This document shows, one piece after another, positions 12,912 through 49,248 of a DNA stretch of 64,000 bases. The notes under the pieces were generated by a model. That model saw only the letters and a program-made list of their open reading frames with translations, made no database searches and had not been told where the DNA came from. The translations under genes and the position numbers were made by a program. The stretch is from positions 37,834-101,833 of the forward strand of contig JAITVV010000048.1 in assembly GCA_031285625.1 (NCBI GenBank), written 5' to 3'. Numbering within the stretch: the stretch's first letter is position 1; each line of letters begins with the position of its first letter. The DNA is from Prevotella sp. (GTDB lineage Bacteria > Bacteroidota > Bacteroidia > Bacteroidales > Dysgonomonadaceae).

Positions 12912-13016
12912 ATAGCCTGAACATAATATTATTATATGTGGTTATAGGCTATGTAGTTTTGTAAAGTTTGTGTTAAGGTATGAGAAAGTCCTGCGACGTG
13001 AGGTTGCGGGCTTTTT
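12912..13016 (+). ncRNA. Candidate sRNA, copy 1 of the 28-nt-core family
   Basis: 5' hairpin ATAGCCT..AGGCTAT, core TGTAGTTTTGTAAAGTTTGTGTTAAGGT (12952-12979), GTGA-loop terminator plus T tract; 5' end approximate. Confidence 0.65.
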
Positions 13017-13722
13017 AATTTATAATACTACTATTTCTTATTTTGCTTAGATCTACAATTTTTGTTTCCTCCATCGCCTCCTCATTCCGAAATGTGATCT
13101 CTATCTTATGATCAGGCATCTTTTTTATAACATTCTCATCTCCGTTTTCAAATTGCCATTCCCAAACAGGAAAATCAAAAAGATTATTCCATTTGTTTTC
13201 TTTATAGCTGAAAATATAATATGTATTGGTACTCGACCAATCTGCATAATTGACTAAATATAGTAATTCATCGCCTCCATCGCCATCCAGATCTCCTTTA
13301 TTATCCATAAAATACAGACCAAACAGTTGTCCTCCGGCATCAATAGTAGTAACAGTATCCGTTACATTATTTTTGTTGATAATATAGATTACGGGATCTA
13401 GTTTCATTGTCCGCTCCACCAATTCATCATAACTTATTTTATCTCCATATAAAAACAATGGAGAAGCTATCGCTCTATTGAGAACCCGGCTATAATAACA
13501 TACATACAATGTATCTGTTTTCCCATCTCCCTTCCAATTACCAGTAACCATTTCCGGAGTATAACCACTCAGAGATTGCGGAACTTCTTGAATATCCCAG
13601 TTTAAAGGAACTTTATTATCTGCAAGGCAAATCGAATCAATAATTACATTTCCGTTATTTGCTGTTTGATTTTTATTGCAGGATATAGTTGCTATAAAAA
13701 GTAAAATAATAATTTTTTTCAT
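13015..13722 (-). CDS. Hypothetical lipoprotein
   Basis: Lipobox ATISC; DLDGDGGDEL Ca-binding-like motif. Confidence 0.7.
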   Translation of the reverse strand: MKKIIILLFIATISCNKNQTANNGNVIIDSICLADNKVPLNWDIQEVPQSLSGYTPEMVTGNWKGDGKTDTLYVCYYSRVLNRAIASPLFLYGDKISYDELVERTMKLDPVIYIINKNNVTDTVTTIDAGGQLFGLYFMDNKGDLDGDGGDELLYLVNYADWSSTNTYYIFSYKENKWNNLFDFPVWEWQFENGDENVIKKMPDHKIEITFRNEEAMEETKIVDLSKIRNSSIIN

Positions 13723-14249
13723 ATTTAATTATCCGTTATTGATAAATAAACTTTCAGAGCATGTGTTATTATGTGTTTTCAAAAATAAAATATCAGGTAA
13801 ATTCGTAAATAAGCTTTCTTTTTCTTTTAGTTTCTTTGTAAATATATAAAAAAGAAAATATATCTCGCCAATATAGTAATAAACTATCAAATAAGCACTT
13901 ACTTAACCGGCATATATGTATAAAAAAAAATATAGCAATCCCTCCTGACATTAACTTATTAATAACTTACTTCAAATGAATGTAATACAGATTTTATAGA
14001 TATAAAAAAAATCAACCTATATAATTTTAACTTTTTTCTTCAATTATATTAATCTATATTTGCATTATAATCAAAGATTTGAGTAATTTTTTTACACTTT
14101 TCTAAATGCCATTACCTGAAACTAAAAGAATAGTTGAAGTGAAATGAAGTGTTAATATTAAGTACACAAATTGCTTTTGGACGGAATGATGCAAAGTCCG
14201 GGATCATTGATCCAGATTTCCAGCCGAAGCAAACTTTATAATCCTCCTC

Positions 14250-14278
14250 AGCCTCCGAACCCTCGGAGGTTATTTTTT
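14250..14278 (+). terminator. Terminator-like hairpin in the leader upstream of the metalloprotease gene
   Basis: AGCCTCCGA-ACCC-TCGGAGGTT then ATTTTTT. Confidence 0.65.
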
Positions 14279-14322
14279 AGATAACTTTACGATTAATGTT
14301 TTTTCTTCTGTAATTTAGCTGA

Positions 14323-15069
14323 ATGAATGGCAGACTACTTAAATATATAGTAATATTTTCCGCTTTTTCAGTGATACTACTCATTAGTATATGGGTATAC
14401 CGGGATGAACAAAGCAAGAAGGCTGAAAGCTTTAATAGTGAGTCGTTCAAAGCTATTGGATATACTAATAATGAATTTGACCTGTTTTGTGATATTGCCT
14501 TTAACAGAAATGGTGAACGAATAAGGAAATGGAGTACAGACATAAAGGTAGAAATAAAAGAACCACATAGACTGAATAGTAGCTCGATAGCTGAGGTTGA
14601 CTCTGTAATTGCTATATTGGGGCCATTAATAGCTCCGTTAAAAATAGAACGTGTGTGGAATAATGGAAATGTATATGTATACAGAAAAGTTGACAAGGTT
14701 AGACTATCCGATTATCATGCAAATGTACCGGTTGCTTTGAAAGGTCTTACCCAGAAGAATAAAGAGTCAGATTCTTCGTGGGAAATTAATTTTGCCAGCG
14801 TATATGTCAGAGAAGGTGCCAATACCCAGACTCTTCTCCATGAATTTGAACATGTACTGGGCCTGGAGCATCCATTGAGGATATACCCTTTTTATATAAC
14901 AATAGGACGATCCATAATACCTGAATTATTTTATTCAGAAACAGAACAGATTTATCTCAAACATCCTTTTTACATCTCTGAACAAGAAAAAACAGTAATA
15001 AGAATGTTATACTCTTCTGAAATAAAATCAGGACTGCACAAGGACAATTTTTTGAATAAAATGAGATGA
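14323..15069 (+). CDS. Membrane-anchored zinc metalloprotease-like protein (DUF2927-like)
   Basis: N-terminal TM segment; HEFEHVLGLEH matches HExxHxxGxxH. Confidence 0.7.
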   Translation: MNGRLLKYIVIFSAFSVILLISIWVYRDEQSKKAESFNSESFKAIGYTNNEFDLFCDIAFNRNGERIRKWSTDIKVEIKEPHRLNSSSIAEVDSVIAILGPLIAPLKIERVWNNGNVYVYRKVDKVRLSDYHANVPVALKGLTQKNKESDSSWEINFASVYVREGANTQTLLHEFEHVLGLEHPLRIYPFYITIGRSIIPELFYSETEQIYLKHPFYISEQEKTVIRMLYSSEIKSGLHKDNFLNKMR

Positions 15070-15178
15070 AAATATTGATTATTTTCCCCATCATCATGCT
15101 TCCCATCTGTTTACGACACATAGATTTGTGTGATATAAACGAAAAACTATATCTTTGATATCTCTAAATCACATAAAT

Positions 15179-16507
15179 ATGAATTGGCAACAGCTCTTAT
15201 CAGCAAAACGTTTTGGGATGGAACAGTATCATGATGACAAACAACATGACCGTACTGATTTTCAGAGGGATTATGACCGATTGATTTTTTCATCCCCTTT
15301 TCGCCGGCTCCAAAACAAGACTCAGGTATTTCCTTTACCTGTTAGTATTTTTGTTCACAACAGATTAACACATAGCATAGAAGTATCATGTGTGGGACGC
15401 TCTTTAGGGGTGGTGGTTGGCCGCGAATTAAGACGTAAATATCCTGATTCCACAGCTGACTTTGAAGAGATAAGCTCTATTATTGCTGCAGGATGTTTAG
15501 CTCATGATCTGGGAAATCCACCATTCGGTCATTCCGGAGAGACAGCAATATCAAGTTATTTCTCGGAAGGAAAAGGGAAACATCTGGAGAAAAAAATAAG
15601 AGAGGAAGGTAAGCGTTGGGAAGATTTTACCAATTTTGAGGGGAATGCTAATTCAATCCGTTTACTGATCCATCAGTTTAACGGACGTCGTAAAGGCGGA
15701 TTTGTGATGACTTATTCGATGCTGGCTTCCATAATCAAATATCCATATTCATCAGTTGCAGCAAATGGTAAAGGGAAATTCGGTTTTTTTGAATCGGAAG
15801 AGAATGATATCAGACAGATTGCAAACGAGTTGGGAATGCATTGCATCCAGAAAACCCCATTGAAATATTCAAGACATCCACTGGTTTATCTTGTAGAAGC
15901 AGCAGATGATATTTGTTATAAAATAATGGATATAGAGGATGCTCATAAATTAGGTTTACTCACTACCGATCAGACAAAGGAACTGTTTCTTGACTTCTTT
16001 GATAAAGAGAGGCAAGAGAAGATGCAAAAAACAATGCTGGTTGTGAGTGATATTAATGAGCAAATTGCTTATCTGCGTTCCAGTGTTATAGGACTACTTG
16101 TAAACGAATGTGCAGAAGTATTTATCAATAACGAACCTGCCATCCTGGATGGAAAGTTTGAAAGTTCATTAATCAAGCACATTTCAAGTTTACCGGATAA
16201 AGCTTATCGTGCAGCAACGGATATCAGCTACAAAAAGATATATAAAACAAAAGATGTGGTAGATATTGAATTAGCCGGACACCGTATTATAGGTTTTCTA
16301 CTAGATACATTTATAACAGCAATAGAGAATCCTGATGCAAAATACTCACAATTGATACTTAGCCGCATTCCCGAGCAATATGAAAAAGATGCTCCTTCTC
16401 TTTATCAGCGTATCTTATCTATACTGGATTTTGTTTCGGGTATGACAGATGTTTATGCCCTTGATTTGTATCGCAAGATTACAGGCATAAGTTTACCTAC
16501 TATTTAA
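15179..16507 (+). CDS. dgt: Deoxyguanosinetriphosphate triphosphohydrolase (HD-domain dGTPase)
   Basis: RDYDR..FRRLQNKTQV, HNRLTHS, HDLGNPPFGHSGE, EAADDICY, SGMTD. Confidence 0.92.
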   Translation: MNWQQLLSAKRFGMEQYHDDKQHDRTDFQRDYDRLIFSSPFRRLQNKTQVFPLPVSIFVHNRLTHSIEVSCVGRSLGVVVGRELRRKYPDSTADFEEISSIIAAGCLAHDLGNPPFGHSGETAISSYFSEGKGKHLEKKIREEGKRWEDFTNFEGNANSIRLLIHQFNGRRKGGFVMTYSMLASIIKYPYSSVAANGKGKFGFFESEENDIRQIANELGMHCIQKTPLKYSRHPLVYLVEAADDICYKIMDIEDAHKLGLLTTDQTKELFLDFFDKERQEKMQKTMLVVSDINEQIAYLRSSVIGLLVNECAEVFINNEPAILDGKFESSLIKHISSLPDKAYRAATDISYKKIYKTKDVVDIELAGHRIIGFLLDTFITAIENPDAKYSQLILSRIPEQYEKDAPSLYQRILSILDFVSGMTDVYALDLYRKITGISLPTI

Positions 16508-17288
16508 TTTCGTTATATAAAAATAATGTATTTTTAAGTTGTAAATCATAAATGAAAATGTCATTTTTTGACAAAATACTTGCCTCATAACAATTTAATA
16601 GATATATTTGCATTTGACAAGACAACAAGAACAACAATATCTAGACGAGACAGAATGCGGAATAAACGCCTTTTAGGGTTGAACACACTATCTTTTCAAG
16701 AAAATATTATAATCAATTCTCTAAAGGAATTGGTCATAATTTCTATTTTTATAAAAAAACAAATTTTATCAAAAATTGAGAATTTGATAGTTAGATTTAT
16801 CTTATTAGGAACAAAAAATGAGATTTATAAAAAATTATCCTAACACATTCTTTGTATACATTGCGAAGCAAATACATTTTGTAATTGGTAAATCAAACAA
16901 AGTTGTATTATTTCAGCAGCAAAAAATTAATAAAAATTTTAGTATATCAAAGTATGTTTTATCCTTTATCAAGAGAGATAAATATACAAATTCAATGCCT
17001 GGAGATGAGTGGAGATGTCATAAACTATTCACATTTGTATTTGTCTTCAATGTTTGTCCCTCCTATTTTCGTTCTAGAGCTTGTGAAAGTATTGAAAGGA
17101 AATCTCAGGTGTTGGATTTGTTTTTAATACAAAAACGTTTAATATAATTATATAAGGCCCTAAGCGTAAGGTCAGACAACAAGATTACATACTTCTCAAC
17201 TTGCAACGTTAGAAGTTACATACGATAAAAAGACAACAATAAAGACAACAAGTATATTATATCCACAAGCTTCAAAGACAAATTGACT

Positions 17289-18554
17289 ATGAAACTAAAA
17301 CTTTACTTATTACTATGTTTGGGCATATTCTGTTCCAAGCATACAAGTGCTCAAGTGACCATGGGGTCGAATAATCCACCAGAGGATTTTGCTATATTGC
17401 AACTTGACGGAACAAGCCAGGGATTACGTTTATCCAGGCTAGATACTAATCAGAGAGACCAGTTGACAAATACATTAGACGCAACAGGAAAACTGACAGC
17501 CCGCGGATTGATGATTTTTAATACAGAGACAGGGTCTATTGAATTCTTTGATGGTGCAGACTGGAAAGGTCTCTCTAAAGCTCCGACCTTTGACAATGGT
17601 ATTGAAAAAGATGGCGTAACCGGAAATGTTATTTTAGGGGGTAACCTACGTGAGGACACTGAAATATCACAAGGTGCAAACAAATTGAATTTTACAACTA
17701 CTACAGGCCTGTTCACTGTTAATACAGATCTATTACAAATTGGTAGTACAAATGTGACTGCCAGTAATGCCAATTTTTCCATCAATAATGGAACTAATGA
17801 TGTCATTAAAATAACAAAAACTTCTACCGGAAGCCAGATAGATGCTATAGTCGGAACAACAGGATTGAATGTTAATAATGGCGTATTTACAGCTGCAACA
17901 GGGAAAGTAACGATGGCTGGTACCGGAGGCAAACTGTCTTATACTTATCCTGTAGCATCAGGTGCTGCCGGTGACGCAATCAAGCCAAAAGCAGGAAGGA
18001 TTATATTTGCTGCTGATACAAAAGGATTGGCCAGATGGGGAGATATAACTCCTTCAACAGAGATTCAACCATTTAATATAACCAGAAATCAGGGATATCA
18101 TGGCACGAATGGTACGCCAAGTAATCAGGATAAAATAACTTCGACGACCACAGAACCTAACCTCACTTTTCAGGCTATAACAGATCCATTGACATTATCA
18201 AAGGGAAGGTGGCTTATAGCTGGAATGGTTTATACATATACATATGCATATGCAACATCAGGTACTGCTAATAAATTTGTATGGACCAGGATTTGCAGAA
18301 ATAACAGTGGAACATATTCACCTTTATTTACTACTGCCAACTTGGCCGAGCTTAAGACTGGGACTTCGACTAATGCCAACTCAGGAGCATATACAGCTAT
18401 TCAGATAATGTATATACTGAATGTAGAAACAGCAGGGCAATACAGAGTAGAGATGACTACTGCAATGCCTAACACGACTATGGTTGCAGGGTGGACAGGT
18501 ACCAGCCAGTTAAGAGCTGTTAAGGTAAGTGACAGAGCCGCAAGTGAGGACTAA
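17289..18554 (+). CDS. Secreted fibre/adhesin-like protein, paralog 1
   Basis: Signal peptide; QVTMGS..P..FAILQLDG..QGLRL, FFDGADW, LGGNL; Thr/Gly/Asn-rich beta shaft; LSKGRWLI head. Confidence 0.65.
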   Translation: MKLKLYLLLCLGIFCSKHTSAQVTMGSNNPPEDFAILQLDGTSQGLRLSRLDTNQRDQLTNTLDATGKLTARGLMIFNTETGSIEFFDGADWKGLSKAPTFDNGIEKDGVTGNVILGGNLREDTEISQGANKLNFTTTTGLFTVNTDLLQIGSTNVTASNANFSINNGTNDVIKITKTSTGSQIDAIVGTTGLNVNNGVFTAATGKVTMAGTGGKLSYTYPVASGAAGDAIKPKAGRIIFAADTKGLARWGDITPSTEIQPFNITRNQGYHGTNGTPSNQDKITSTTTEPNLTFQAITDPLTLSKGRWLIAGMVYTYTYAYATSGTANKFVWTRICRNNSGTYSPLFTTANLAELKTGTSTNANSGAYTAIQIMYILNVETAGQYRVEMTTAMPNTTMVAGWTGTSQLRAVKVSDRAASED

Positions 18555-18572
18555 TAATCTTATACACAAATT

Positions 18573-19778
18573 ATGAAAGTTATGAATAAATTATATATAT
18601 ATACATTAATTTTATTGTTTACAGTATTTTCTGTGAACGAGACCTTTGCTCAGGTTACTGCCGGGTCGAATAAAGTTCCTGCCAGCTTTAGTGTACTACA
18701 GCTTGACGGTACTACGGGAGGTTTACGCTTACCTCAGATATCAAATAAAAGCCTTATCAATATCAATTCCTCATCTTCTGCAGCCAGAAAACTTCTGGCT
18801 AGAGGACTTACCATCTATGACACTAACACCGGATGGGTAGAATATTGGAACGGGACAGACTGGGCTCCTGTATCTCAATCTTTATCAGTAACAAATGGCA
18901 TAAAGGAATATACAAACTATATCGGTTTAGGAGGTAATCTAGCTGAAGATACGCCTATAAACCTAAAGACATTTAATCTGAATTTAAAAACAAACTCGAC
19001 ATTAGGCAAATTCATTGTTAATACTAACGTATTACAGATTGATAACAGAAACATCCGCTTTCAGCCATCCCGTTTCTCTGTAAACACGAATCTTCTTTCT
19101 GTAACAAGTGATGCAATTACTTTAAATCCATATCTAGGTGGTACCGGTATTTACACCCTTAAATCAGTAAAAACTGATGGAACAGATACTGGAAATTCTA
19201 TAGTGGTGACAAATAATAATGTGCAAGTAAACGGAGATCTTTCGTACCGAGATAACGGGGACAATCCTGTAACTGTTGGTCATGCAATGGTTTCTATGGA
19301 TAATGGTGATGCTTATTGGGCACCATTAAAACCCGAAACCAGTTTTAGATATGGAACATTTCTATCAAGTGTAAGTATCACAAGAACTTCGACAAGTGAT
19401 ACATATTATACGAATATGACTACAACTCAGATCTCAGATACTCCTCTAACATTAACTCCAGGAAAATGGATGATATTTGCTTCTTATGCCACTACTTCTA
19501 CAGGCACTGCAGCTCAGAATGTAAACTATGTCTGGACATATTTGTATAAGCAGCCAACGAGTGGAGGAACAAAAGAATTAGTGACTGTTATGGGAAAGCC
19601 AACATCTTCGAATGATGCAAGCAGGACAACATTTCCCAATCTTGTATATGTTGTAGATGTTACGGAAGAAACAAATTTTACTCTCGAAAGCGGAACAAGG
19701 AATTATACTACATCTTTATCTTATAGCTATGATGCACCTTCATTCTTCGCAATGTCGATCATTGAAGCAGGTAAATAA
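18573..19778 (+). CDS. Secreted fibre/adhesin-like protein, paralog 2
   Basis: Same N-terminal motifs (QVTAGS..PASFSVLQLDG..GGLRLP, YWNGTDW, LGGNL); LTPGKWMIFA. Confidence 0.65.
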   Translation: MKVMNKLYIYTLILLFTVFSVNETFAQVTAGSNKVPASFSVLQLDGTTGGLRLPQISNKSLININSSSSAARKLLARGLTIYDTNTGWVEYWNGTDWAPVSQSLSVTNGIKEYTNYIGLGGNLAEDTPINLKTFNLNLKTNSTLGKFIVNTNVLQIDNRNIRFQPSRFSVNTNLLSVTSDAITLNPYLGGTGIYTLKSVKTDGTDTGNSIVVTNNNVQVNGDLSYRDNGDNPVTVGHAMVSMDNGDAYWAPLKPETSFRYGTFLSSVSITRTSTSDTYYTNMTTTQISDTPLTLTPGKWMIFASYATTSTGTAAQNVNYVWTYLYKQPTSGGTKELVTVMGKPTSSNDASRTTFPNLVYVVDVTEETNFTLESGTRNYTTSLSYSYDAPSFFAMSIIEAGK

Positions 19779-19798
19779 TAATACAAAATAAAATAATC

Positions 19799-21010
19799 AT
19801 GAAATATAATATATATATACTGAGCATATTATTTACATTCCTATGTGTAAATAAATCATATAGTCAGATTACAATAGGATCAGATATAGAACCTGCAAGT
19901 TTTTCCCTTGTTCAGGTAGAGGGTAGTGATGGAGGAGTACATTTACCGCGGATGACATCAAGTGAGATGACCACACTCGGTGCATCGATGATAGGTAATA
20001 GCGAATCACAAGCACTCGTTGTATACAATACATCTGATAACAGAATGGAATTCTGGGATGGCAGTGTATGGGTACCTCTAACAGCCACAAGTATATCAGG
20101 TAGCAATGCAATCACAAGTGTAGTTACGCCACAAGGGTTAAAGCTGGGTGGGGATTTAACGAAAACAACAGAAATTGACATGAAGGATTTCAACTTTAGC
20201 TTCAAATATAATACAGGTACATCCGAACAGCTTTCGATAGGATCTGTTAAAGTAAAAAATGATGAAGTTGATCTTACTATCCCTGCAACAGGTGCTTTTA
20301 CAGTTAATACCAACGCTCTGAATGTGAATTCATCCAATCGAAATATTGGTATGGCAGCCGAAAAGGTTACTGTAAATCAGGATCTTTTAACTATAGAAGA
20401 TGCTAGTGTAGCAGGAACAGGAGTAAAAGGTACCTTAAATTACCCGCATTCATCAAAAGGCTCCGGTTATTTACTGGTAAGCGATGATACAAATGGAAAT
20501 ACTTCCTGGGGTGCTGTCAGACCGATGGGTACAATTGAAACGGGAACATTAAGTGATAATACCTTTTTCTGGAATGGCAACGATCAAAATATTACGACAT
20601 CATATCTTAAATTATCACCTGGGCAGTGGATGATATTTGCTAAATATACAGGAAGAATGGTGTCTGCAACTGCCTTAATGTACCAATGGCTACAATTAGA
20701 AAAAACTACCACTAACCCTAACAGTGGAAGTCCAACATGGACATCATTAGGACGAGGAGGAGCCAACCCTGAGTTAATAACAACAGGAAGTACTTCAACT
20801 TTTTTGTATTGTACACCATCTTATAGTCGTATGGTCAATATAACAGAAACTACTTATTACAGGGTGGTTGCAATGACTAGTAATCCTCGAAATACTACAA
20901 GTACTAATACAACGACTATGCAGCGTAATACAAGAACAGTCCCTGATTTTGGAGGTTCATATTTCTATGCTGTCAGAATAGATGTGGAAGATCCTTCAAA
21001 TCCATATTAA
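19799..21010 (+). CDS. Secreted fibre/adhesin-like protein, paralog 3
   Basis: QITIGS..PASFSLVQVEG..GGVHLPR, FWDGSVW, LGGDL; LSPGQWMIFA. Confidence 0.65.
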   Translation: MKYNIYILSILFTFLCVNKSYSQITIGSDIEPASFSLVQVEGSDGGVHLPRMTSSEMTTLGASMIGNSESQALVVYNTSDNRMEFWDGSVWVPLTATSISGSNAITSVVTPQGLKLGGDLTKTTEIDMKDFNFSFKYNTGTSEQLSIGSVKVKNDEVDLTIPATGAFTVNTNALNVNSSNRNIGMAAEKVTVNQDLLTIEDASVAGTGVKGTLNYPHSSKGSGYLLVSDDTNGNTSWGAVRPMGTIETGTLSDNTFFWNGNDQNITTSYLKLSPGQWMIFAKYTGRMVSATALMYQWLQLEKTTTNPNSGSPTWTSLGRGGANPELITTGSTSTFLYCTPSYSRMVNITETTYYRVVAMTSNPRNTTSTNTTTMQRNTRTVPDFGGSYFYAVRIDVEDPSNPY

Positions 21011-21031
21011 TTTGATTATAATCTCGATATC

Positions 21032-21066
21032 TAAGCCTAATCAGAATTGATTAGGCTTATTTTATT
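21032..21066 (+). terminator. Intrinsic terminator of the three-gene cluster
   Basis: TAAGCCTAATCA-GAAT-TGATTAGGCTTA then T-rich tract. Confidence 0.8.
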
Positions 21067-21099
21067 TTCTATATTTGTTTATTATAGAGACCATCAAAT

Positions 21100-21861
21100 A
21101 TGAGACAAACAATATTCATAATACTACTATTTACATGCTTAGTCGTATGTCAATCACAAACCAATTACCCGGTTGGAGTTCAGAGACTATTAGAAGCATA
21201 TTCATCTAGTATAACAGGATACGATGGAACTTCCATAATACTGAGAGATGGCAGTAAAATAGCTTATTCAGAGGGAGAAAATAAGTCTCATAATGAACTG
21301 ATGAATAGTAATGACATAGGAGATATATTCACTTATCCATATATAAAGGGAGAAGTTAAACATATACCGAAGAATTATGATCCGGGACGTATTCGAAATG
21401 AAGAATTATTAAAAAAGATGTATGGTTCTACTTCTGCAGAAGTTCAGAAAAGTTTGGTTACAATTATTTGGTGTCCAAAACTTGTGAACCAAAAATTAAG
21501 GATTACAAATATCAATGGTGTTGCAGAACAATTACAGAAAATCTCAAAAGAGTTAGACAAACATCCTGAGCTAAGAGATTATTTATATAGTGCCGGAACA
21601 TTTAACTGGCGCAAAGTCAGAGGAACAGACAGACTAAGTTCTCATAGTTTTGGTACAGCTATCGATCTGAATGTAAAATACTCTAATTATTGGCAATGGG
21701 ACTGTCGCTGCACATCTGAAGATACTGATTTAGAGTATAAAAATAAAATACCGCAACTAATAGTAGATATTTTTGAAAAGTACGGTTTTATATGGGGCGG
21801 AAAATGGTATCATTACGACACTATGCATTTTGAATACAGACCCGAATTATTAGTAAATTAG
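21100..21861 (+). CDS. M15 family metallopeptidase (cell-wall peptidase)
   Basis: LSSHSFGTAIDLN (SxHxxGxAxD) and WGGKWYHYDTMHFE. Confidence 0.88.
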   Translation: MRQTIFIILLFTCLVVCQSQTNYPVGVQRLLEAYSSSITGYDGTSIILRDGSKIAYSEGENKSHNELMNSNDIGDIFTYPYIKGEVKHIPKNYDPGRIRNEELLKKMYGSTSAEVQKSLVTIIWCPKLVNQKLRITNINGVAEQLQKISKELDKHPELRDYLYSAGTFNWRKVRGTDRLSSHSFGTAIDLNVKYSNYWQWDCRCTSEDTDLEYKNKIPQLIVDIFEKYGFIWGGKWYHYDTMHFEYRPELLVN

Positions 21862-21935
21862 AAGCCCTTTTCTATTTAATAAAAATTGTCTTTCCTGTAA
21901 TATTTTGTAGCTTTGTTTGTCCAAAAATCAAAGCC

Positions 21936-23795
21936 ATGAAAAAACTGATCGTATTAACTTTCTTCCTCATCTCATTTTTTACTTTATATGCCCAACAAGT
22001 ACTTTTTCCCAGAGAAGAAAACACATGCAGGATAATGTCGTATAACATTAGGAATGCAAGAGGGCTCGATGAAATAACTAATTATCAACGGATAGCAAAT
22101 ATTATAGAGAAAGTTTCTCCCGATGTTATTGCTTTACAGGAACTGGATAGTGTAACACAACGAAGCAATAAGGCTGATGTATTGAAACAACTAGCCGACA
22201 TCACCAGAATGCATGCGATATATGGTGCTGCTATACCTTTTCAGGGAGGTAAATATGGTATTGGCATCCTTTCCAAAAAACGTCCTTTATCATGGAAAAA
22301 CATTCCTCTTCCGGGACGGGAAGAAGTACGGGCACTGCTCATGGTCGAATTTGATAAATATATTGTTTTTGCTACCCATTTTTCGCTTACATCAGAAGAT
22401 CGTATAACATCAATAAAGATAATAAATGAGCTGGCAAATCATTCTGATAAACCGGTATTCTTAGCTGGAGACCTCAATGCAGAACCAGATTCATCCGAGA
22501 TAAAGACATTAGCTACGAATTGGAAAATTCTGAATAATACTAAAGATGCGACCTTCCCGGCAAATAATCCTGTAAATAAAATAGATTATATTATGGGATA
22601 TGCAAAAGGAGGTAAGACTTACTCGGTGCATCAGGCCAAGGTTGTGGATGAGCCTGTAGCGTCGGATCACAGGCCATTATTTGTAGATGTACGATTAAGT
22701 ACAAGCGAAGATAAAGTAATGCGTACACAGCCATATCTGCAAAATCCGTCCACAGATGCAATGACTATAATGTGGATGACAAATGTGCCTTGCCGTAGTT
22801 GGGTCGAATATGGGACAGATAGCACTAACATGCAGCGTGCACGTACATTTGTGGAAGGGGAAGCTATGGCAAATAATACTATTAATCGTATCCGGCTGGA
22901 AGGACTTAAACCCGGTACAAAATACTACTACCGTGCTGTATCACAGGAAATAACTCTTTATCAACCATACAAGAAAGAATTCGGAGATACTGTACGCACA
23001 ACTTTATCTTCCTTTACAACATGGAATGATAATCTAAAAGATTTTACAGCTCTGGTATTTAATGATCTTCATGACAATTATGATCTTTTTGATAAGTTAT
23101 ATGCCCAGGTAAAAGATAAAAAGATTGATGTTATTATATTTAATGGTGATTGCATTGCAGATGTACAAAGTGAGGATGTTGCCGTAAAGAGCATTTCTCA
23201 TTACTGTGAGGTAGCTGGCGGAAATAATATACCAACAATCTTTATCAGAGGAAATCATGAGACAAGAGGAGCATACTCGATGTTTTTATGGAATCTGCTG
23301 GAGAAAAAAGGAGGAACACATACTTATGGTGCGTTTAATCTGGGAGATACACGTTTTGTTTTGCTTGACTGCGGAGAAGACAAGCCGGATGATCACTGGG
23401 TATATTATGATATGAATGACTTTACCCATTACCGCCAGGAGCAGGCTGACTTCCTGCGAAAGGAGTTGGCTTCCTCTGAATTCAAAACGGCTAATAAACG
23501 CATCCTTATTCACCATATACCTCTCTTCGGGAAAAATATGGATGAGTATAATCCGTGTAAAGACTTCTGGGAACCGATACTGGCAAACGCTAAGTTTGAC
23601 GTTTCGCTGAATGCACATACTCATGAGTTTGAATACATTCCAACCGGGAAGGAGCAAAATAACTACCCGGTAATGATAGGTGGAGGTCCTAGTGAGAAAA
23701 GTGGCGTAGTTACTGTTTTGGAAAAAAAAGGGAATAGCATGACTCTCACTGCTATAAATGTAAATGGAGCGGAAGTACTAAAGCTTGATTTGTAA
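21936..23795 (+). CDS. EEP (endonuclease/exonuclease/phosphatase) domain fused to an FN3-like domain and a metallophosphoesterase
   Basis: SYNI, LQE, GDLN, SDHRP (EEP); DLH, NGD, RGNHE, HTH (calcineurin-like). Confidence 0.88.
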   Translation: MKKLIVLTFFLISFFTLYAQQVLFPREENTCRIMSYNIRNARGLDEITNYQRIANIIEKVSPDVIALQELDSVTQRSNKADVLKQLADITRMHAIYGAAIPFQGGKYGIGILSKKRPLSWKNIPLPGREEVRALLMVEFDKYIVFATHFSLTSEDRITSIKIINELANHSDKPVFLAGDLNAEPDSSEIKTLATNWKILNNTKDATFPANNPVNKIDYIMGYAKGGKTYSVHQAKVVDEPVASDHRPLFVDVRLSTSEDKVMRTQPYLQNPSTDAMTIMWMTNVPCRSWVEYGTDSTNMQRARTFVEGEAMANNTINRIRLEGLKPGTKYYYRAVSQEITLYQPYKKEFGDTVRTTLSSFTTWNDNLKDFTALVFNDLHDNYDLFDKLYAQVKDKKIDVIIFNGDCIADVQSEDVAVKSISHYCEVAGGNNIPTIFIRGNHETRGAYSMFLWNLLEKKGGTHTYGAFNLGDTRFVLLDCGEDKPDDHWVYYDMNDFTHYRQEQADFLRKELASSEFKTANKRILIHHIPLFGKNMDEYNPCKDFWEPILANAKFDVSLNAHTHEFEYIPTGKEQNNYPVMIGGGPSEKSGVVTVLEKKGNSMTLTAINVNGAEVLKLDL

Positions 23796-23919
23796 AGCCT
23801 TCAATCTCTGCTTATCTTTCATATTTCACAAAAATATTTTTCGGACAAAATATACTATTATATTTCTTTTTAGTTTTTTTGGTATAAATTTTGTTGCTGT
23901 TCATTCTATACACTTCATT

Positions 23920-25050
23920 ATGAAACAGAAAACAAAAACAAGACTAAAAAAAACTATGTTAATAGCTATATCTATCATTGGCATTCTAATCATTGCCGGA
24001 ATCATATTCTTAAACTCACCTAGATTTGGAAAGACTCCGTCCGGCGATCGACTGGAAAGGGTGAAGAGCTCGCCTAACTACAGGGAAGGTAAATTTCAAA
24101 ACCAGAGCTATACAATTCAATTAACCGGTGATAAGAATATGTTTCTTACAGGTTTAGATTTTCTATTCGGAAAAAAAGAGAGGTTAACCCCTACTGTAGC
24201 ATTACCAACAATAAAAACCGATCTTATAAACTTGAATAGGGAATCTGATATTTTAGTTTGGTTTGGTCATTCATCTTATTTTATGCAAATTGATGGTAAA
24301 CGAATCCTTGTAGATCCGGTATTCAGCGATGTATCACCTGTTTCTTTTATAAATAAACCGTTCAAAGGTACCGATATCTATAAACCAACCGACATGCCTG
24401 ATATCGATTATCTGTTTATATCCCATGATCACTGGGATCATCTGGATTATAATACAGTTATGGAGCTAAAAGATAGAACAAGTAAGATCATTTGTGGTTT
24501 AGGTGTTGGCGAACATTTCGAACATTGGGGTTTCGACAAGAATAAAGTAATTGAATTAGATTGGAATGCAGTCTCTACCCTGGATGAAGGATTTAGTACA
24601 TACTGTCTTCCCACCCGTCATTTCTCCGGCAGAGGATTATCCCCGAACCAATCACTCTGGGCATCGTTCTTATTACAAACTCCCACAATGAAAATATATA
24701 TTGGTGGCGATAGCGGATATGATGCTCATTTTGCAAAAATAGGCGAACAATTTGCAGAAATAGATTTAGCTATATTGGAAAATGGACAATATAATCAGGA
24801 TTGGAAATATATTCATATGATGCCCGAAGAGGTAATACAGGCCGCAAAAGACCTACATGCTAAAACTCTACTTCCTGTTCATTCTTCTAAGTTTGCTCTT
24901 GGGTATCACTCTTGGGACGAACCTCTGAAAAGAATTACTGAAGCAAACAAGAAAGAAAACCTGCGTTTACAGACACCTATGATTGGAGAAATCGTAAATT
25001 TGAAGGATAGCACACAAACCTTTAAAGAATGGTGGGCTGGTATTGATTAA
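23920..25050 (+). CDS. MBL-fold metallo-hydrolase (RomA/NAPE-PLD-like)
   Basis: WFGHSS, SHDHWDHLD, RHFSGR, GDSGY; ATG at 23920 more plausible than the TTG in the track. Confidence 0.88.
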   Translation: MKQKTKTRLKKTMLIAISIIGILIIAGIIFLNSPRFGKTPSGDRLERVKSSPNYREGKFQNQSYTIQLTGDKNMFLTGLDFLFGKKERLTPTVALPTIKTDLINLNRESDILVWFGHSSYFMQIDGKRILVDPVFSDVSPVSFINKPFKGTDIYKPTDMPDIDYLFISHDHWDHLDYNTVMELKDRTSKIICGLGVGEHFEHWGFDKNKVIELDWNAVSTLDEGFSTYCLPTRHFSGRGLSPNQSLWASFLLQTPTMKIYIGGDSGYDAHFAKIGEQFAEIDLAILENGQYNQDWKYIHMMPEEVIQAAKDLHAKTLLPVHSSKFALGYHSWDEPLKRITEANKKENLRLQTPMIGEIVNLKDSTQTFKEWWAGID

Positions 25051-25071
25051 TACACGAGATAATATAAATGC

Positions 25072-25140
25072 AAAAAGGTCCCGATATCACATCGTAGACC
25101 TCTTCAACCTTAACACAAACTTTACAAAACTACATATATA
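25072..25140 (-). ncRNA. Candidate sRNA, copy 2 of the 28-nt-core family
   Basis: Reverse complement of the core at 25107-25134, then AGGTCTACGAT-GTGAT-ATCGGGACCT-TTTT terminator on the minus strand. Confidence 0.65.
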
Positions 25141-25282
25141 TAACGCCTGTTTCCTGAAATTGTTTTATCAAAACCACCAATTTATTACTAAATAAGGATT
25201 ATTTTTGCTAAAAAGTGTTTATCTTACTCTATTGATAAAACTCAAGTTGTATATATTCGCATGACATCTTACTTTTAAAACG

Positions 25283-26020
25283 ATGAACGAACTATCATAC
25301 TGCCCTTATTGTAACCAAAAAATAGAGATCGGTAGCGAAAAGTGCCCTTACTGTCAACGTATTTTTACTTCAATGAAAAGACGCGTATACGAACCGGGTT
25401 ATGCACTGATAAGACAAGATTTTGGCCTGATAAAAATAGTTTCTGTAACACTCACTTTCTTAATGGTATTATTGTGCCTCTATCCATTCTTAAATAGAAA
25501 TGTTTATATATTGCAGTCTTTTGATGAAGGTACAATACCCCTGTTTGTAATAACTCTGATTATTATATTGTCATTGTGGCAGATATCATTTGTATCTAAA
25601 TATTTACTTAATTTCTACCATCCTTTTTCAAAGATTTTTACAAACATCAGATGGGAAATGATAGCTATAGTTTTTTTTCTACTGCTAGGTATCTCTGCCA
25701 TAATAGTTGACACACTCAATAACTCAGACTTACAAAGTGGCATGCCTATCTATAAAGATATGATCAGCCATCAGAATATGCAGATTATTACATCACTTTT
25801 TATTGCAACATACGTATTTTGGGTTTTTGTTCATGCTATAACAGGATGGACACTTGCCGATTCTCGTAAACTTGACTTTGTGGGAGGGCTTCCTTATTTA
25901 GGATATATTTTGTTGGCGTCTGCAATTATCCCTTTATTCATTATATTTGTGCCAATGTTTGTAACAAATATATTCTTTAAAGCCGGAGAATATTCAAAAA
26001 AGTATGGATTTCTGACATAA
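25283..26020 (+). CDS. Membrane protein with N-terminal zinc ribbon
   Basis: CPYC-x10-CPYC followed by several TM helices. Confidence 0.75.
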   Translation: MNELSYCPYCNQKIEIGSEKCPYCQRIFTSMKRRVYEPGYALIRQDFGLIKIVSVTLTFLMVLLCLYPFLNRNVYILQSFDEGTIPLFVITLIIILSLWQISFVSKYLLNFYHPFSKIFTNIRWEMIAIVFFLLLGISAIIVDTLNNSDLQSGMPIYKDMISHQNMQIITSLFIATYVFWVFVHAITGWTLADSRKLDFVGGLPYLGYILLASAIIPLFIIFVPMFVTNIFFKAGEYSKKYGFLT

Positions 26021-26027
26021 ATTATGC

Positions 26028-26064
26028 ATCATCGCCTCGAAATTTAGGACTCCGAGGCGATGAT
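26028..26064. terminator. Terminator-like hairpin
   Basis: ATCATCGCCTCG...CGAGGCGATGAT perfect 12-bp stem. Confidence 0.7.
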
Positions 26065-35436: not shown

Positions 35437-38400
35437 TGTTTCTCTTTTACAGTTACTTTTATTCCTTGTGTATGTGATACAAATTCAGGTGCATACATAC
35501 ACTGAATCGTTGTTATGCCATTGGCATACTCACCACTACGGTTTACATATACCGAATATTCCAGGACATAAGTACCTTTTGGAAGATGATCGAAATAAAA
35601 ATTCGTAGATGCATCTTTAGGTATTTGATAATAAGATAATCTTTCAGCCCATTTCATACCTGAAATACTTTGTATCGGCTCGAAACAAGGAGCGCGCATA
35701 TCTTTTAATTGAACAAATTCAAAATCGCGTTCTGCTTTTATAGTCAGGCGAACGATTACCTTGTCACCTATTGTGAGTGAATTGTTCTCTGTAATTTGTG
35801 TCAACCCCTTTCCTGAAGATATATCACTTTCTTTGAACAATTGCTTCTCGATGTTCAGCTCTCCTTTTTGTGAGGTAATCTTATCCAGATTTTCGTAATA
35901 CTGCCAGTACAAAGCTCCAAAAGCAGGTTCTAGGCCGGTAGAATTTATTTCTACTTTAGCCATGCTATTATCGATTTTCGACTTGTCCCAGGTTTGTTTG
36001 ATATATCCTGTTCCCAACTCTTTATTCTGAGGTTCAATTTTTGTTTGTCCAACTGTGATCGCTACCGGATTTGATTCTCCCGTGAACCAATCAGTTCCAG
36101 TACCTAATAAGGCACTGATTGCATCAATAGATGCATGGGTTGTTTCCCATATCTGAGTACGCTTCTGATTTAGCAACCATTGTTTCATCAGATTCATTTC
36201 TTCCTTTGTTGCACCGTTTTCTTTAAGGGCATCCATCAGGAATGTATGCACACTTATAGCAGACATTGACATAAATACATTACTACGGTTATTTGGCCAG
36301 TACATGCCTTGTTTATCTGTCACAGCATGCTCTTTGATCGATTTAGTGATTTTATCAGCAAGTTTTTTATCTCCATTACGTTTAAGGATAACAGATAAGA
36401 TAGAACGCTCATAAAGGCCTAGTTTAGTCCAGTTTTTGCTGGCTACATCCGTATAAAAACGTTCTGCTGCACGAGCTTCCTGATTGATTGGTATATCACG
36501 GTAGAATGAACGGACATATGCAAATTCAAGTTGATTAGTAGACACGGATGATGTTTTTTCCCAATTCTTGTTGTACTTTTTCAGATTCTCAAAGTCCTCG
36601 GTAATTTTCTTATCGATAAACTTTAATGCATCCATCTGCATCATTTTTATTTCTTGCGGGTATTGTACCTGCCCCACAAGCTGTAAATTAGCATATCCAT
36701 ACAATATGTACTGAGTGATAGAACGGCTAGGGTACATTCCTTTATACCATGACCAGCCACCATCAGTTTGCATCAGTTCTTTTAACTTGTTTGTTGCTGC
36801 ATCGGTTTGCTGTTTTGTATTATTCAGATCAAACAATAAAGATAACCGCTGCATCTGTTCTGTTTCCGTCTTTGCTTCCAAAACCCATGGAGTTTCTTCC
36901 AGAAGAACAGCTTTTAGTTCCTCATCTTTTTGCAGTTTTGAAATCAGCGTTTGCTTGTCTCCACCCTGCTTTTTCCATGAATTGATCATATTGGTAATTT
37001 TCGGGTATTGATGTATGATAGATGCTCCGAGCTGATTTACATAATAGCTGGCAAACCAGTTAACTGCATTCTCGTTTGTCGGGTTACTTAGCGTAGGCAA
37101 TGCCTGTACCGCATACCATGCAGGATTAGATGCGTACTCAAGGGTCAGCTTATAGTTACTTGAAGTAGCAGATGTATTGTTATACAGCTTATCAAATGTA
37201 AATGTGCTTGTTCCGGCTTTCGTCACATCTATAGGCATACTTTCTGTTACCAGCATACGGTTTGATAATACAGGTAATACATGTTGTTCCCCATCGCTGA
37301 AAGTGGCATTTTGCGCAATGATACGGCAGCCAATGAGTTCAATATCATTTGGTATATCGAATGTCCAACTGGCAGAGGTTGAAGCTTCTTTTTCAACAGA
37401 GAATGTCTGTTTCTGATTCGCTATATTCAAATTGATAGTTTTATCTGTGGCAGGATCAAAAAATTCGATGTGCACATCGCCTGATATAACGTTGTCTGAT
37501 AGATTTGATATCTTCGTAGAAATACTGGTCTTATCGCCCTGACGAACAAAACGCGGCATATTAGGCGTCACCATCAATTCCTTCTGTGTAACAACAAACT
37601 CCTCCAATGAGCCCACTCTGGCATTCTTATCATGAGCTATTGCCCTGAATCTCCATGTTGTATTGCTTTCCGGTACAGTAAATGAGATCAGCGTTTCCCC
37701 TTTCTCATTTGTTCTGAGCTGAGGGAAGAAGAAGGCTGTTTCGTTAAAATTCTGGCGGATTTGTGGTGTAGAAGATTCTTCTTCAATCCCTGCTCCGCCA
37801 GCATCTGCAGAGTCCATTGACATGTATCCGTCAAGTTTACTTTTTTGTCTAGCCATTCTTGGTGCAGGAGCAGCTGTCACAACTGATTCCTGCATGATTA
37901 CTTTATTTTCACTTAGTTCGGCAATATCCACTCCGGATGCGCTTGTTCCTTTCACATCAGCCACAGATATTATTACGCCATTTTCATCTCTTTCACCTTC
38001 TCCGTATATGTATTCTTCAACATTCTGATAGATATAGCCAAACCAGTTCAATTGATCAAATCTAATCGCAGTTTTTAATATCTCATGCGATAATGGAGGC
38101 AGCTCATTTCCTGAGACCATTTCCGATCCCTTAGCATATGTAGTAAACCATCTTTGTTGATTATTACTCCAAGAATATCTTGACTGATAGTCATAATGTA
38201 TAGGAGAAACCGGCTCTGTATAGATGGGTGGATGTTGGAAAAACCATGCTCTGGACGGATATAGCATATCAAGAGAAGTATCATACATAGAGGCTAAGAG
38301 TTCGGCTTTCACAGGATTATTTGTGGTATCTTTCACACTGATAGTCCATGTCTCATCCTGGCCCGGACGTAATTTGTCGCGGAATACTTCTGTTTTCAGA

Positions 38401-41474: not shown

Positions 41475-41567
41475 ATCGTTATATTTTGTATTTTCTATTC
41501 AATATATAATAGACGGGATTTGTCTCTGAAATTCATACCGACAAATGTTAATTTTATAAAAGATGTG

Positions 41568-41924: not shown

Positions 41925-42049
41925 TCTTCAAATTTAGATGAATATTTCCGAATCAGTAAATTTTGAGGATATTAATTAAGTAAACGATGAAATCTTTTGG
42001 TTTGTTCGGCGAAGGAAAATATCTTTGTTTTTATAAAATATTGTAAAGG

Positions 42050-42892: not shown

Positions 42893-42898
42893 TAATTA

Positions 42899-43154: not shown

Positions 43155-43173
43155 CATCACAAAAAAAGTAAGG

Positions 43174-44385: not shown

Positions 44386-44403
44386 TCCTGATCATAATAA
44401 AGT

Positions 44404-44435
44404 AAAAGAGGAAATTAGTATTTCCTCTTTTTTTT
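44404..44435 (+). terminator. Intrinsic terminator
   Basis: AAAAGAGGAAAT-TAGT-ATTTCCTCTTTT plus long T tract. Confidence 0.8.
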
Positions 44436-44440
44436 AACTT

Positions 44441-44498
44441 ATATTGTCTAAAAAAATAGACAATATATTTTTATGTCTAATTTTTTAGACTAAATTTG
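44441..44498 (+). promoter_or_regulatory. Palindromic operator-like sites overlapping the GLPGLI promoter
   Basis: ATATTGTCTA-N6-TAGACAATAT and GTCTAA-N4-TTAGAC abutting TAAATTTG. Confidence 0.45.
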
Positions 44499-44519
44499 CC
44501 TCATAACTTTTAAATTACT

Positions 44520-45404: not shown

Positions 45405-45445
45405 GCCTATCATCAAATATTTACCCAATCTATCCTGATCAGGCT

Positions 45446-48076: not shown

Positions 48077-48216
48077 GTTAATGGATATTTGACCCTTATT
48101 TAGAAAAAAAGGAAAAAAAAGCACTATATAACATAAATGTTATACCAAAAGTCTACTAATTTTCACTCATAAAAAAATAGTTATATATTTGTATTCGATA
48201 AGAGGAATTATATCTT

Positions 48217-49113
48217 TTGATGAAAAGCAAAGGGCAAATATACCTTAAAAAAGATAGGCTACAAAAGGAAAAGAGAGAAACTGAGTATTCGTTAGAGGAC
48301 GATTTTAAATTATTCAGCAATGCCTCCTCTATTCCAATCCCAAACACGCCATTTTATACGTCTTTTGGTATAATGGGTATATGTAAAAACGGAAATGTGA
48401 CAATTGGTACACACCAACAAGAACATCGCTTTGTAAAGGGTGAGTTGATGGTGATATTGCCAAAACAAACATTTTTCTTAAAGGAACAAAGTAATGATTT
48501 TTTAATGGATTATTTTATTCTGTCTCAGCCTATCATAGATGATGTTCTTAGTGGAGTATCGCGTCTTTCGCCGCTTTTTTTTATACATATGCGAAAGAAA
48601 ATGTTTTACAAGTTGGATAAAGATGAAACATACAGATACTCTGAATATTATAATCTAATGAATAATAGACTCTTGTCCGCAGATTGCATTTTTCAACGAG
48701 AATATATAGTGAGTGTGTTGAGGCTTTTTTATCTTGATCTTTATAATAGTTTCAAAAACAGTATAATGTCGATAAACTCGGCCCCTGACTCCAGAAAAGA
48801 GAAGTTAGCATATAAATTTTTTCTTTTGATTTTGAAACACTATAAAGAAAAACGGGACATTACGTTCTATGCAGATCAATTATCTATTACGCCTAAATAT
48901 TTATCTAAGGTCATAAAAGAGGTAAGTGGCAGATCTGCTAAAGATTGGGTGGTAGAATATATACTATTGGAAATAAAATCATTATTAAATAATACATCAC
49001 TAAACATACAAGAGATCACTATTGAAACGAATTTTTCGAATCAGGCTTCACTGGGACGTTTTTTTAAAAAACATACAGGTATATCCCCTTCCCAATATAG
49101 AGAAGCAAATTAA
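48217..49113 (+). CDS. AraC family transcriptional regulator
   Basis: FYADQLSITPKYLS, NFSNQASLGRFFKKHTGISPSQYR. Confidence 0.92.
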   Translation: MMKSKGQIYLKKDRLQKEKRETEYSLEDDFKLFSNASSIPIPNTPFYTSFGIMGICKNGNVTIGTHQQEHRFVKGELMVILPKQTFFLKEQSNDFLMDYFILSQPIIDDVLSGVSRLSPLFFIHMRKKMFYKLDKDETYRYSEYYNLMNNRLLSADCIFQREYIVSVLRLFYLDLYNSFKNSIMSINSAPDSRKEKLAYKFFLLILKHYKEKRDITFYADQLSITPKYLSKVIKEVSGRSAKDWVVEYILLEIKSLLNNTSLNIQEITIETNFSNQASLGRFFKKHTGISPSQYREAN

Positions 49114-49169
49114 TGATAGAGTAAATATAGTTAGGTAAAACACTTGTTAAAAAAGGAAAAAATATATCA

Positions 49170-49248
49170 ACTAAATATTGTGTAGTTTTGTAAAGTTTGT
49201 GTTAAGGTTAGGGTCCTGTAAGTCGTGAGACTTGGCAGGATCTTTTTT
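49170..49248 (+). ncRNA. Candidate sRNA, copy 3 of the 28-nt-core family
   Basis: Core at 49181-49208, then GGTCCTGTAAGTC-GTGA-GACTTGGCAGGATC-TTTTTT; 5' end approximate. Confidence 0.65.

Follow-up and report, generated by a model that had tools for sequence, protein, structure and literature searches.

A 64,000-nucleotide stretch of DNA (the window; positions 37834–101833 of contig C23 in a 4.84-Mb assembly that is 94% complete) contains three copies of an element made up of an identical 28-nucleotide core, a hairpin and a T run. The element probably belongs to a family of small RNA (sRNA) genes of the Dysgonomonadaceae, whose products, of about 62–72 nucleotides, would act in trans; the family would have been born at the 3′ end of tpx, which encodes thiol peroxidase, and later been duplicated in the genus Dysgonomonas. 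It is best read as a sister family of the FopS-type sRNAs, specific to the Dysgonomonadaceae. Transcription, the 5′ end, action in trans, the targets and the protein partner are each features that we infer from sequence comparison and prediction. The genus of the window's genome is taken to be Dysgonomonas, and its family that of this genus, which is placed by NCBI in the Dysgonomonadaceae, Bacteroidales.

The core, TGTAGTTTTGTAAAGTTTGTGTTAAGGT, is found exactly at the three loci and on the strands reported in an initial annotation of the window (Table 1). The window contains no further match with up to three mismatches, and none of 100 dinucleotide shuffles gave any match. A hairpin begins 1–4 nucleotides past each core and is followed by the T run, and all three loops contain GTGA, as was first described. 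When folded on the strand of the element, copies 1, 2 and 3 reach −17.8 (z-score −3.0), −15.2 (z-score −2.5) and −19.5 kcal/mol (z-score −4.2), respectively, about twice as good as the values for the opposite strand (−6.3, −8.2 and −10.4 kcal/mol). The core is unpaired in all three predicted folds. Against the covariance model R1, described below, the three copies score 75, 72.5 and 67.4 bits.

From fetched loci (Dysgonomonas records), 145 copies with enough flanking sequence were collected, 128 of them unique. In the unique copies conservation sets in sharply at −2 to 0 relative to the core, and a T-rich stretch is present at +58 to +69. Positions that the search had left free are also conserved, positions 0–3 at 94–98% and positions 0–3 plus 26–27 at 91–98%. 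A downstream hairpin with a folding energy of −8 or lower is present in 127 of the 128 copies; its loop has the form G-N-G-A in 112 of these 127 and GTGA in 71. Model R1, which describes the core plus a stem of 15 pairs, was made from 120 of 124 sequences, L052, L072, L104 and L118 being excluded after quick folds without a clear hairpin. For the analysis of covariation, 107 R1 matches from 100 loci were aligned to the model and 90 distinct rows were scored. Paired combinations fill 95.2% of the cells, compared with 71.2% after shuffling (0 of 500 shuffles reach the observed value) and 46–55% when the partner is slid by 1–3 columns; an alignment fitted to R1 favours the given structure, with the slid and shuffled controls lying far off. 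All 15 pairs show changes on both sides; cells with such double changes number 260, compared with 63.7 in the shuffles. RNAalifold on a MAFFT alignment had returned 0 pairs, with the hairpin types out of register, and that alignment was replaced by the R1-fitted one. About 340 of 1315 cells (summed from the per-pair table) are G-U pairs, which become A-C mismatches on the other strand. Together with the strand-biased folding this means that the pairing works only on the strand running from core to hairpin, which argues for an RNA made in that direction. These results support a terminator that is conserved in structure, not in sequence, and that covaries strongly. The covariation, the strand asymmetry of folding and the near-constant presence of the hairpin bear out the original description of an invariant unpaired stretch in front of a terminator conserved in structure only.

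In the window's own genome, the core is matched five times at up to three mismatches, each time exactly. Model R1 gives seven strong matches of 58–88 bits, consisting of the five exact copies, a copy with one T fewer (C23:27002–27072(−)) and C28:104846–104916(−). About four weaker relatives, at 27–35 bits, have visibly related 5′ parts. The early expectation of many more copies genome-wide holds in that further members do exist, but their number is modest and four of the seven strong members are clustered: these four and tpx lie within 60 kb of contig C23 (C23:27002–87085), one of the copies about 10.8 kb before the window. Among named genome records the inner 22-mer occurs in at least 115 stretches, and Dysgonomonas makes up 72 of 80 among the matches listed; D. 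mossii and D. gadei are among the species that have the element, judging by record titles. A pattern search was positive in all 24 other genomes of the same genus, with 2–15 matches each, and gave 0 matches in 16 genomes from 16 other families. Within the taxonomic family, model R1 has matches in 90 of 100 further genomes, covering 21 of 21 genera, with 2–14 matches per genome in Dysgonomonas and a single one in almost all others; among 139 genomes that each represent another family of the order, it yields one weak match (28 bits, to the hairpin half only). In several Dysgonomonas records members are paired, convergent or in tandem, at a distance of 15–60 nucleotides (Table 1; L038, L059 and L082 resemble L024), one member of the pair usually being more diverged (30–49 bits).

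The founder copy is the 3′ untranslated region (UTR) of tpx, with the stop codon inside the core. At locus L201, an open reading frame (ORF) of 166 amino acids ends at a TAG made of core bases 3–5 (...ATT GTG TAG) and matches NCBIfam NF001808 (thiol peroxidase) with 242.8 bits, the cut-off being 123. An intact Tpx carboxy-terminus of the form ELVPEIxQEPxYxxAINSIV, followed by the stop codon and ending in the core, is present at 15 of 20 loci, from seven other genera; the remaining five of these 20 other-genus loci have tpx remnants only. In three other genera tpx is located downstream of a UvrA-like ORF (the names UvrA and PrfA were read from the translations). The copy of the window's genome that occupies the founder position, C6:31659, lies between UvrA-like and PrfA-like ORFs, without tpx, and keeps a frameshifted tpx remnant of about 75 nucleotides. 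The same remnant is present in about a dozen Dysgonomonas records, block-conserved though non-coding, and the sequence farther upstream of it is unalignable; this block conservation points to a non-coding function such as that of a promoter. The window contains the genome's own tpx, which scores 245.5 bits and shares 69% identity with Tpx of L201. Its product ends in ...AAINALKK, and the stop codon is followed by an ordinary, unrelated hairpin terminator without the core. Last tpx codons are still recognisable in one class of copies, class B (for example C10:29818), and in window copy 3, where the stretch TCAACTAAATATTG, compared by eye, resembles the last codons ATCAACTCTATTG of the founder copy and is probably a remnant that moved with the duplicated element. 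A 3′-UTR-derived sRNA begins no earlier than the stop codon of a same-strand gene, whose terminator it shares. The founder copy fits this definition; in the window, copies 3 and 1 could do so and copy 2 could not. The region upstream of the founder core had been considered as an RNA domain or operator, which was dropped, the sequence being tpx coding sequence. In the last part of tpx, or in what remains of it, a helix could form between GAGTTGGTT and AATCAACTC (A3 columns 61–69 with 114–122; −59 to −51 with −14 to −6). This helix is 93.8% paired, with some G-U pairs and 11 two-sided changes against 4.7 in shuffles, but its columns vary little, the pairing is broken in two genera and the support is weak.

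The initial annotation described the 5′ flanks as unrelated. They do differ among the copies, but copies 1 and 2 share the motif (G/A)AAC-N17/18-GTTATA, and copy 3 keeps the tpx remnant. Promoters of extracytoplasmic function (ECF) sigma factors have the consensus AAC at −35 and GTT or CGT at −10, separated by a spacer of 16–18 nucleotides. The motif GAAC-N17/18-GTT(A)TA resembles such a promoter; a start from it would lie at about core base 1, giving an RNA of 62–72 nucleotides. In 44 of the 128 copies a GAAC begins between −34 and −31, compared with 2/128 in each of two other windows; in the same window, GTTC occurs in 2/128 and the scrambled CAAG in 15/128, mostly in tpx coding sequence. 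When the 44 are sorted, about 20 are in tpx coding sequence or remnants and about 23 are not. In the latter, GAAC is followed by 17–18 unrelated bases and then by GTT(A/T)TA, which ends 5–7 nucleotides before the core. The presence of [GA]AAC-N16-19-GTT at −37 to −28 is associated with a divergent upstream gene (7 of 9 such copies, copy 2 included, against 15 of 81 with a co-oriented one; Fisher p = 0.0006, or 0.004 without the tpx-type copies). Class B copies alone carry TA..[TA]TTG at −8 (26/128). A near-palindrome, AACCTGACTAGGTT, is located about 25–38 nucleotides 5′ of the core in class B copies (L002:1460–1500, G000:C10:29818; at least 17 orthologues) and could be a regulator-binding site.

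On the upstream side, copy 1 is flanked by an MFS transporter, copy 2 by a weakly matching zinc-ribbon protein and copy 3 by an AraC-type regulator; on the downstream side lie an MBL-fold hydrolase in the case of copy 2 and unassigned ORFs in the case of copies 1 and 3. With six differing neighbour ORFs, the copies are indeed intergenic and next to unrelated genes. The convergent arrangement described for copies 1 and 2 is correct for the downstream gene. The upstream gene is co-oriented with copy 1 (388 nucleotides past its stop codon) and with copy 3 (68 nucleotides past it), and the analysis of the window found no terminator between the upstream gene and either copy. Copy 2 runs antisense to each of its neighbours and would therefore need its own promoter. 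In a survey of 94 of the 128 copies, namely those flanked on both sides by 1.3 kb or more (the other 34 had too little flanking sequence), and with crude ORFs of at least 120 amino acids, the upstream ORF is co-oriented in 81 (median gap 142 nucleotides), divergent in 9 and absent in 4. Copies lie between convergent genes in 35 cases and between divergent ones in 3; between co-directional genes, 41 are sense and 5 antisense (binomial p < 1e-7 for the bias, which is overstated since the copies are related). The elements sit where terminators sit, which keeps open the upstream transcript as source or beneficiary for many copies. The conclusion of the initial annotation that the copies are not UTRs had considered the downstream gene only and is incomplete: given a founder that is the tpx 3′ UTR and the co-orientation of 81 of 90 copies with the upstream ORF, production from the upstream transcript is a real possibility in the case of copies 1 and 3.

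Sections of PMC11697453 describe the FopS RNAs of Bacteroides thetaiotaomicron as a paralogous family of 14 members of about 65–70 nucleotides, each with a single-stranded conserved 5′ seed and a terminator, transcribed from canonical promoters, bound by the RRM protein RbpB and repressing the translation of susC-type mRNAs; one member is 3′-UTR-derived, and the parent of FopS-14 is BT_4331. The question of relatedness to FopS, left undecided in the initial annotation, has a divided answer. The predicted size (63–68 nucleotides for a start at core base 1) and the architecture, a single-stranded 5′ region plus a Rho-independent terminator, are the same as in these sections, and UUAAGGUU and GUGA-type terminator loops are common to both families, but the seed differs and canonical FopS-type copies are also present in the window's genome. 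Aligned to the published 35-nucleotide 70% consensus of the FopS seed (R1′), the core scores 22, against 15.3 ± 3.0 for shuffles, 76 of 2000 of which reach it. The Dysgonomonadaceae family is also restricted to one taxonomic family, its motif is GAAC-N17/18-GTT and not an upstream TAnnTTTG, and no SusC-directed complementarity was found for it here. Six separate loci of the window's genome, none of them a copy of this family, match a 22-nucleotide part of the FopS consensus at 0–2 mismatches. Each has a TAnnTTTG box 4 nucleotides upstream (TATCTTTG-TACT-GTGTTTTT), the published 5′ sequence and a terminator with a GTGAT loop, and R1 misses all six. The Dysgonomonadaceae family is therefore not FopS proper.

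Across the order, the 22-nucleotide FopS pattern is present in 34 of 141 genomes, and at least twice in 20 of 141. These 20 are each from a different family, except for two from the window's own; the reversed pattern gave 20 matches in 17 genomes, and lone matches with three mismatches are noise. FopS-type seeds thus seem to be far more widespread than the Bacteroidaceae. In three of 28 other Bacteroidales families (L230, L236 and L256) a FopS-like sequence directly follows the tpx stop codon, its score against the published consensus being reached by 0, 3 and 0 of 2000 shuffles, respectively. L230 and L236 have a variant in common that is single-copy in both genomes. The Dysgonomonas core gives no significant alignment with L230 and L236 (384 and 550 of 2000 shuffles), and the tpx-position link between the two families is positional and architectural, not one of sequence. 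A bolder proposal is that all multicopy UUAAGGUU sRNAs of the Bacteroidales, FopS and this family alike, derive from the 3′ end of tpx, a peroxide-defence gene, which would have turned into a gene of its own at least twice and been multiplied separately in different lineages, the free copies in Dysgonomonas being driven by a stress-type ECF sigma factor through GAAC-N17/18-GTT promoters; we regard it as speculative and rather doubtful. The words 'tpx', 'peroxidase' and 'oxidative' do not occur in the main text of PMC11697453. In titles and the beginnings of abstracts in the literature, no such Dysgonomonas small RNA, core sequence or tpx UTR-derived sRNA was found.

A comparison with Rfam, suggested at the outset, assigned no family to the window at gathering thresholds. 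At E ≤ 10, one of five copies has a match, copy 3, with 26.4 bits to RF04180 (BTnc231), for which the gathering score is 80.4. The alignment covers UUAAGGUUAG and the hairpin top AAGUCGUGAGACUU. BTnc231, a Bacteroides sRNA and RbpB ligand that, with GibS, is among the closest known systems, differs in its length of 154 nucleotides and in having a second domain. RF04180 gave no match above the cut-off in five other genomes, and the FopS-type loci of the window's genome gave weak matches to it. No Rfam family named FopS was matched, the accession being given as 'pending' in the preprint.

Other systems provide partial parallels. MicL, CpxQ and DapZ are enterobacterial 3′-UTR-derived sRNAs. The founder copy likewise uses the terminator of a coding gene and starts at its stop codon, with a promoter-like motif in the final part of that gene's coding region or in what is left of it; here, the UTR element has been multiplied into free-standing paralogues. 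Qrr1–5 of Vibrio and LhrC of Listeria are families of sibling sRNAs with long invariant seeds. The Dysgonomonas copies, too, are unlinked paralogues with an identical single-stranded stretch and differing flanks and terminators, but they belong to a different phylum and have no Hfq context. Listeria is mentioned in the discussion of the FopS paper (PMC11697453).

In the mechanism that we propose, the family would have begun as the tpx 3′ UTR, which is still its sole copy in most genera, and in Dysgonomonas the element would have been copied to the ends of further genes and to intergenic sites, resulting in 2–14 copies per genome. Stand-alone copies, such as copies 1 and 2, would be transcribed from the ECF-type promoter GAAC-N17/18-GTT(A)TA, with the start at or next to core base 1; where a co-oriented gene lies just upstream, as for copy 3, the transcript of that gene may be a further source. 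The invariant, unpaired, U/G-rich 28-mer is likely to be a base-pairing seed, a protein-binding part, or both. If it acts like FopS and GibS of Bacteroides, the RNA would base-pair with mRNAs around their translation starts, and the single RRM-domain protein of the genome (G000:C5:2143–2352(−), 82.1 bits to RRM_1) may bind it.

Several observations count against this proposal. The copies are related within and between species, so that the counts given above are not independent. In tpx-linked copies GAAC corresponds to Glu-Pro codons. Genome-wide, GAAC-N17/18-GTTATA is not enriched (28 occurrences against 19–35 for controls; 17 against 33 in another search), and it could be assigned to no sigma factor. 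Target prediction, another of the checks originally suggested, was done by a crude method with guessed start codons for 2850 ORFs and showed no enrichment over other genes or shuffled seeds: the mean duplex energy is −12.39 kcal/mol at SusC-type starts (n = 54, of 56 TIGR04056 matches) and −12.49 kcal/mol at the 2796 others (p = 0.31), and strong duplexes number 31 with the real seed and 29–61 with shuffled seeds. Contigs from public RNA runs (10 runs) give no transcript ends, strand or level; in the four runs compared over 12700–25400, contigs end or branch at the repeat and have one depth each, and one 'RNA?' run may be DNA. As to pairing partners in general, complementary 12-mers are found 62 times genome-wide once the copies are removed, against 33 for the reversed control, several of them being degenerate family copies, and the 5′ region of tpx has no pairing with the core. 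There is one hint of targets: ACCTTAA, the complement of the UUAAGGU present in both this family and FopS, is commoner upstream of SusC-type ORFs (5 of 54, at 12–44 nucleotides before the guessed start) than of other ORFs (45 of 2796; p = 0.002).

A different function is conceivable for the same structure. The element could be a cis-acting 3′-end module that serves the upstream mRNA in termination, 3′-end protection or protein docking, its spread being the reuse of a terminator cassette without any role in trans. Such a module predicts just the pattern of positions observed, in which copies follow co-oriented genes and convergent sites greatly outnumber divergent ones; moreover, the founder itself is the 3′ UTR and terminator of tpx, nothing that looks like a terminator separates copies 1 and 3 from their upstream genes, and the target prediction is empty. 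This is the main rival of the proposed reading, although we consider it unlikely. Ordinary terminators do not hold 26–28 nucleotides invariant across genera while the adjacent coding sequence drifts, and the nine copies with a divergent upstream gene, copy 2 among them, cannot belong to that gene, seven of them having the promoter-like motif. Furthermore, species without tpx at the founder locus have retained the element together with about 75 nucleotides of non-coding remnant, and the similar FopS RNAs are described as trans-acting in B. thetaiotaomicron in sections of PMC11697453. A selfish origin, as a mobile repeat of the repetitive extragenic palindromic (REP) or miniature inverted-repeat transposable element (MITE) type or as a passenger of integrative elements, would leave the element without an RNA function of its own. 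The element is multicopy in one genus only (2–15 copies) and mostly at gene ends, like REP elements, it forms tandem and convergent pairs in some genomes, and the 22-mer is found on three IMG/VR contigs, once by the 3′ end of a tRNA and once 2.4 kb from an integrase. Yet it has no terminal inverted repeats of the MITE type, in agreement with the initial annotation; conservation extends from about −5 only as far as the T run, the hairpins differ by compensatory substitutions, unlike faithful copies, and a single-copy, syntenic tpx founder across 21/21 genera fits vertical descent under selection, all of which makes this origin improbable. Finally, 26–28 invariant base pairs across a bacterial family could also be a protein-binding site in the DNA, an operator or recombination site that merely lies beside terminators. 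We give this hardly any credence, as the core is non-palindromic, keeps a constant orientation and distance to a strand-specific, G-U-rich hairpin and T run, and starts inside the stop codon at the founder locus, and the neighbouring genes suggest no binding protein.

A further alternative leaves family and function as they are and concerns the 5′ end. Core positions 3–10, TAGTTTTG, form a perfect −7 box of the primary sigma factor in 125 of 128 copies, the consensus for sigma-ABfr being TAnnTTTG according to part of PMC7366714. In the core, TAGTTTTG is followed by TAAA-G, in the same layout as TATCTTTG-TACT-G in the FopS-type copies of the window's genome. A start near core position 15 is possible from this sequence; the RNA, of about 50 nucleotides, would then begin with GUUUGUGUUAAGG, about 5 nucleotides after the box, the first 13 nucleotides of the core being promoter. 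Variant copies keep core T3 and A4 more often than T1 and G2, and class B copies have TTG 21 nucleotides upstream of the box. The longer RNA is favoured because the box's two unconstrained positions and the TAAA spacer vary no more than the remainder of the core, across genera too, and because copies that are intact in other respects differ in the number of Ts in the run, which ranges from 3 to 5 (TTT in C23:27002 and two further genera, TTTTT in another genus) and breaks the spacing of the box. An RNA starting at the core also gives UUAAGGUU a distance to the 5′ end similar to that in FopS, and the copies that need a promoter of their own carry the GAAC-GTT motif upstream. The shorter RNA deserves to be kept in mind, although we doubt it.

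Very few cases of regulation by sRNAs are known in Bacteroidota, almost all of them in one species. If the proposed trans-acting RNAs are real, they would form a second distinct multicopy family, coexisting with FopS-type copies in one genome, in a genus that lives in insect and termite guts and is occasionally isolated from humans. The lone tpx 3′-UTR element, the element with a dead tpx remnant and the free paralogues with promoter-like motifs would form an evolutionary series, which makes the origin of an sRNA family from a UTR directly testable. Were all UUAAGGUU sRNAs tpx-derived and the free Dysgonomonas copies ECF-driven, oxidative or envelope stress might be relayed to many mRNAs through identical seeds whose dosage can be tuned.

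Table 1. Coordinates of the elements and associated features. Window positions count from the first nucleotide of the window; the others refer to contigs of the window's assembly (C) or to fetched loci (L). For the ACCTTAA examples the position is that given for the 5′ region of the SusC-type gene.
Feature	Sequence	Position	Strand	Description
Copy 1	window	12952–13017	+	predicted RNA of about 66 nt; core 12952–12979; hairpin 12983–13016, loop CGTGAG; T run after
Terminator flag, copy 1	window	12990–13010	+	terminator-like by prediction
Promoter-like motif, copy 1	window	12919–12946	+	putative; GAAC 12919–12922, 18 nt, GTTATA 12941–12946; 5 nt before core
Copy 2	window	25070–25134	−	predicted RNA of about 65 nt; core 25134–25107; hairpin loop GTGAT; T run after
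Promoter-like motif, copy 2	window	25139–25165	−	putative; AAAC 25165–25162, 17 nt, GTTATA 25144–25139
Copy 3	window	49181–49248	+	predicted RNA of about 68 nt; core 49181–49208; hairpin top AAGTCGTGAGACTT; T run after
tpx-like stretch	window	49167–49180	+	TCAACTAAATATTG; directly 5′ of copy 3
AraC-type regulator	window	48217–49113	+	upstream of copy 3
tpx	window	4319–4813	−	without core
tpx terminator	window	about 4270–4295		unrelated hairpin
Second hairpin	window	49286–49305	+	GGGCcataaGCCC
FopS-type locus	C69	75627–75648	−	
FopS-type locus	C69	75356–75377	−	
FopS-type locus	C52	52359–52380	−	
FopS-type locus	C52	55419–55440	−	
FopS-type locus	C91	14962–14983	−	
FopS-type locus	C75	26589–26610	−	
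ACCTTAA (example)	C13	32420		
ACCTTAA (example)	C4	138795		
ACCTTAA (example)	C28	9474		
ACCTTAA (example)	C39	10152		
ACCTTAA (example)	C71	8020		
Member pair	L024	1501–1570 / 1585–1653	+ / −	
Member pair	L069	1535–1605 / 1656–1721	− / −	
Member pair	L088	3654–3714 / 3777–3847	+ / +	
22-mer, IMG/VR contig	L205	10206–10227	−	directly after tRNA 3′ end
22-mer, IMG/VR contig	L206	2262–2283	+	
22-mer, IMG/VR contig	L207	850–871	−	2.4 kb from integrase (phrog_1)

A blastn search of phage records with copy 1 returned chance-level matches only (E ≥ 2). The three IMG/VR contigs with the 22-mer are predicted to be viral or proviral, and the copies on them may simply lie in host flanks. The second hairpin near copy 3, GGGCcataaGCCC, is located 38 nucleotides beyond the terminator of that copy and has A and T runs on its sides. 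It looks like a bidirectional terminator and contributed to the weak match of copy 3 to BTnc231.

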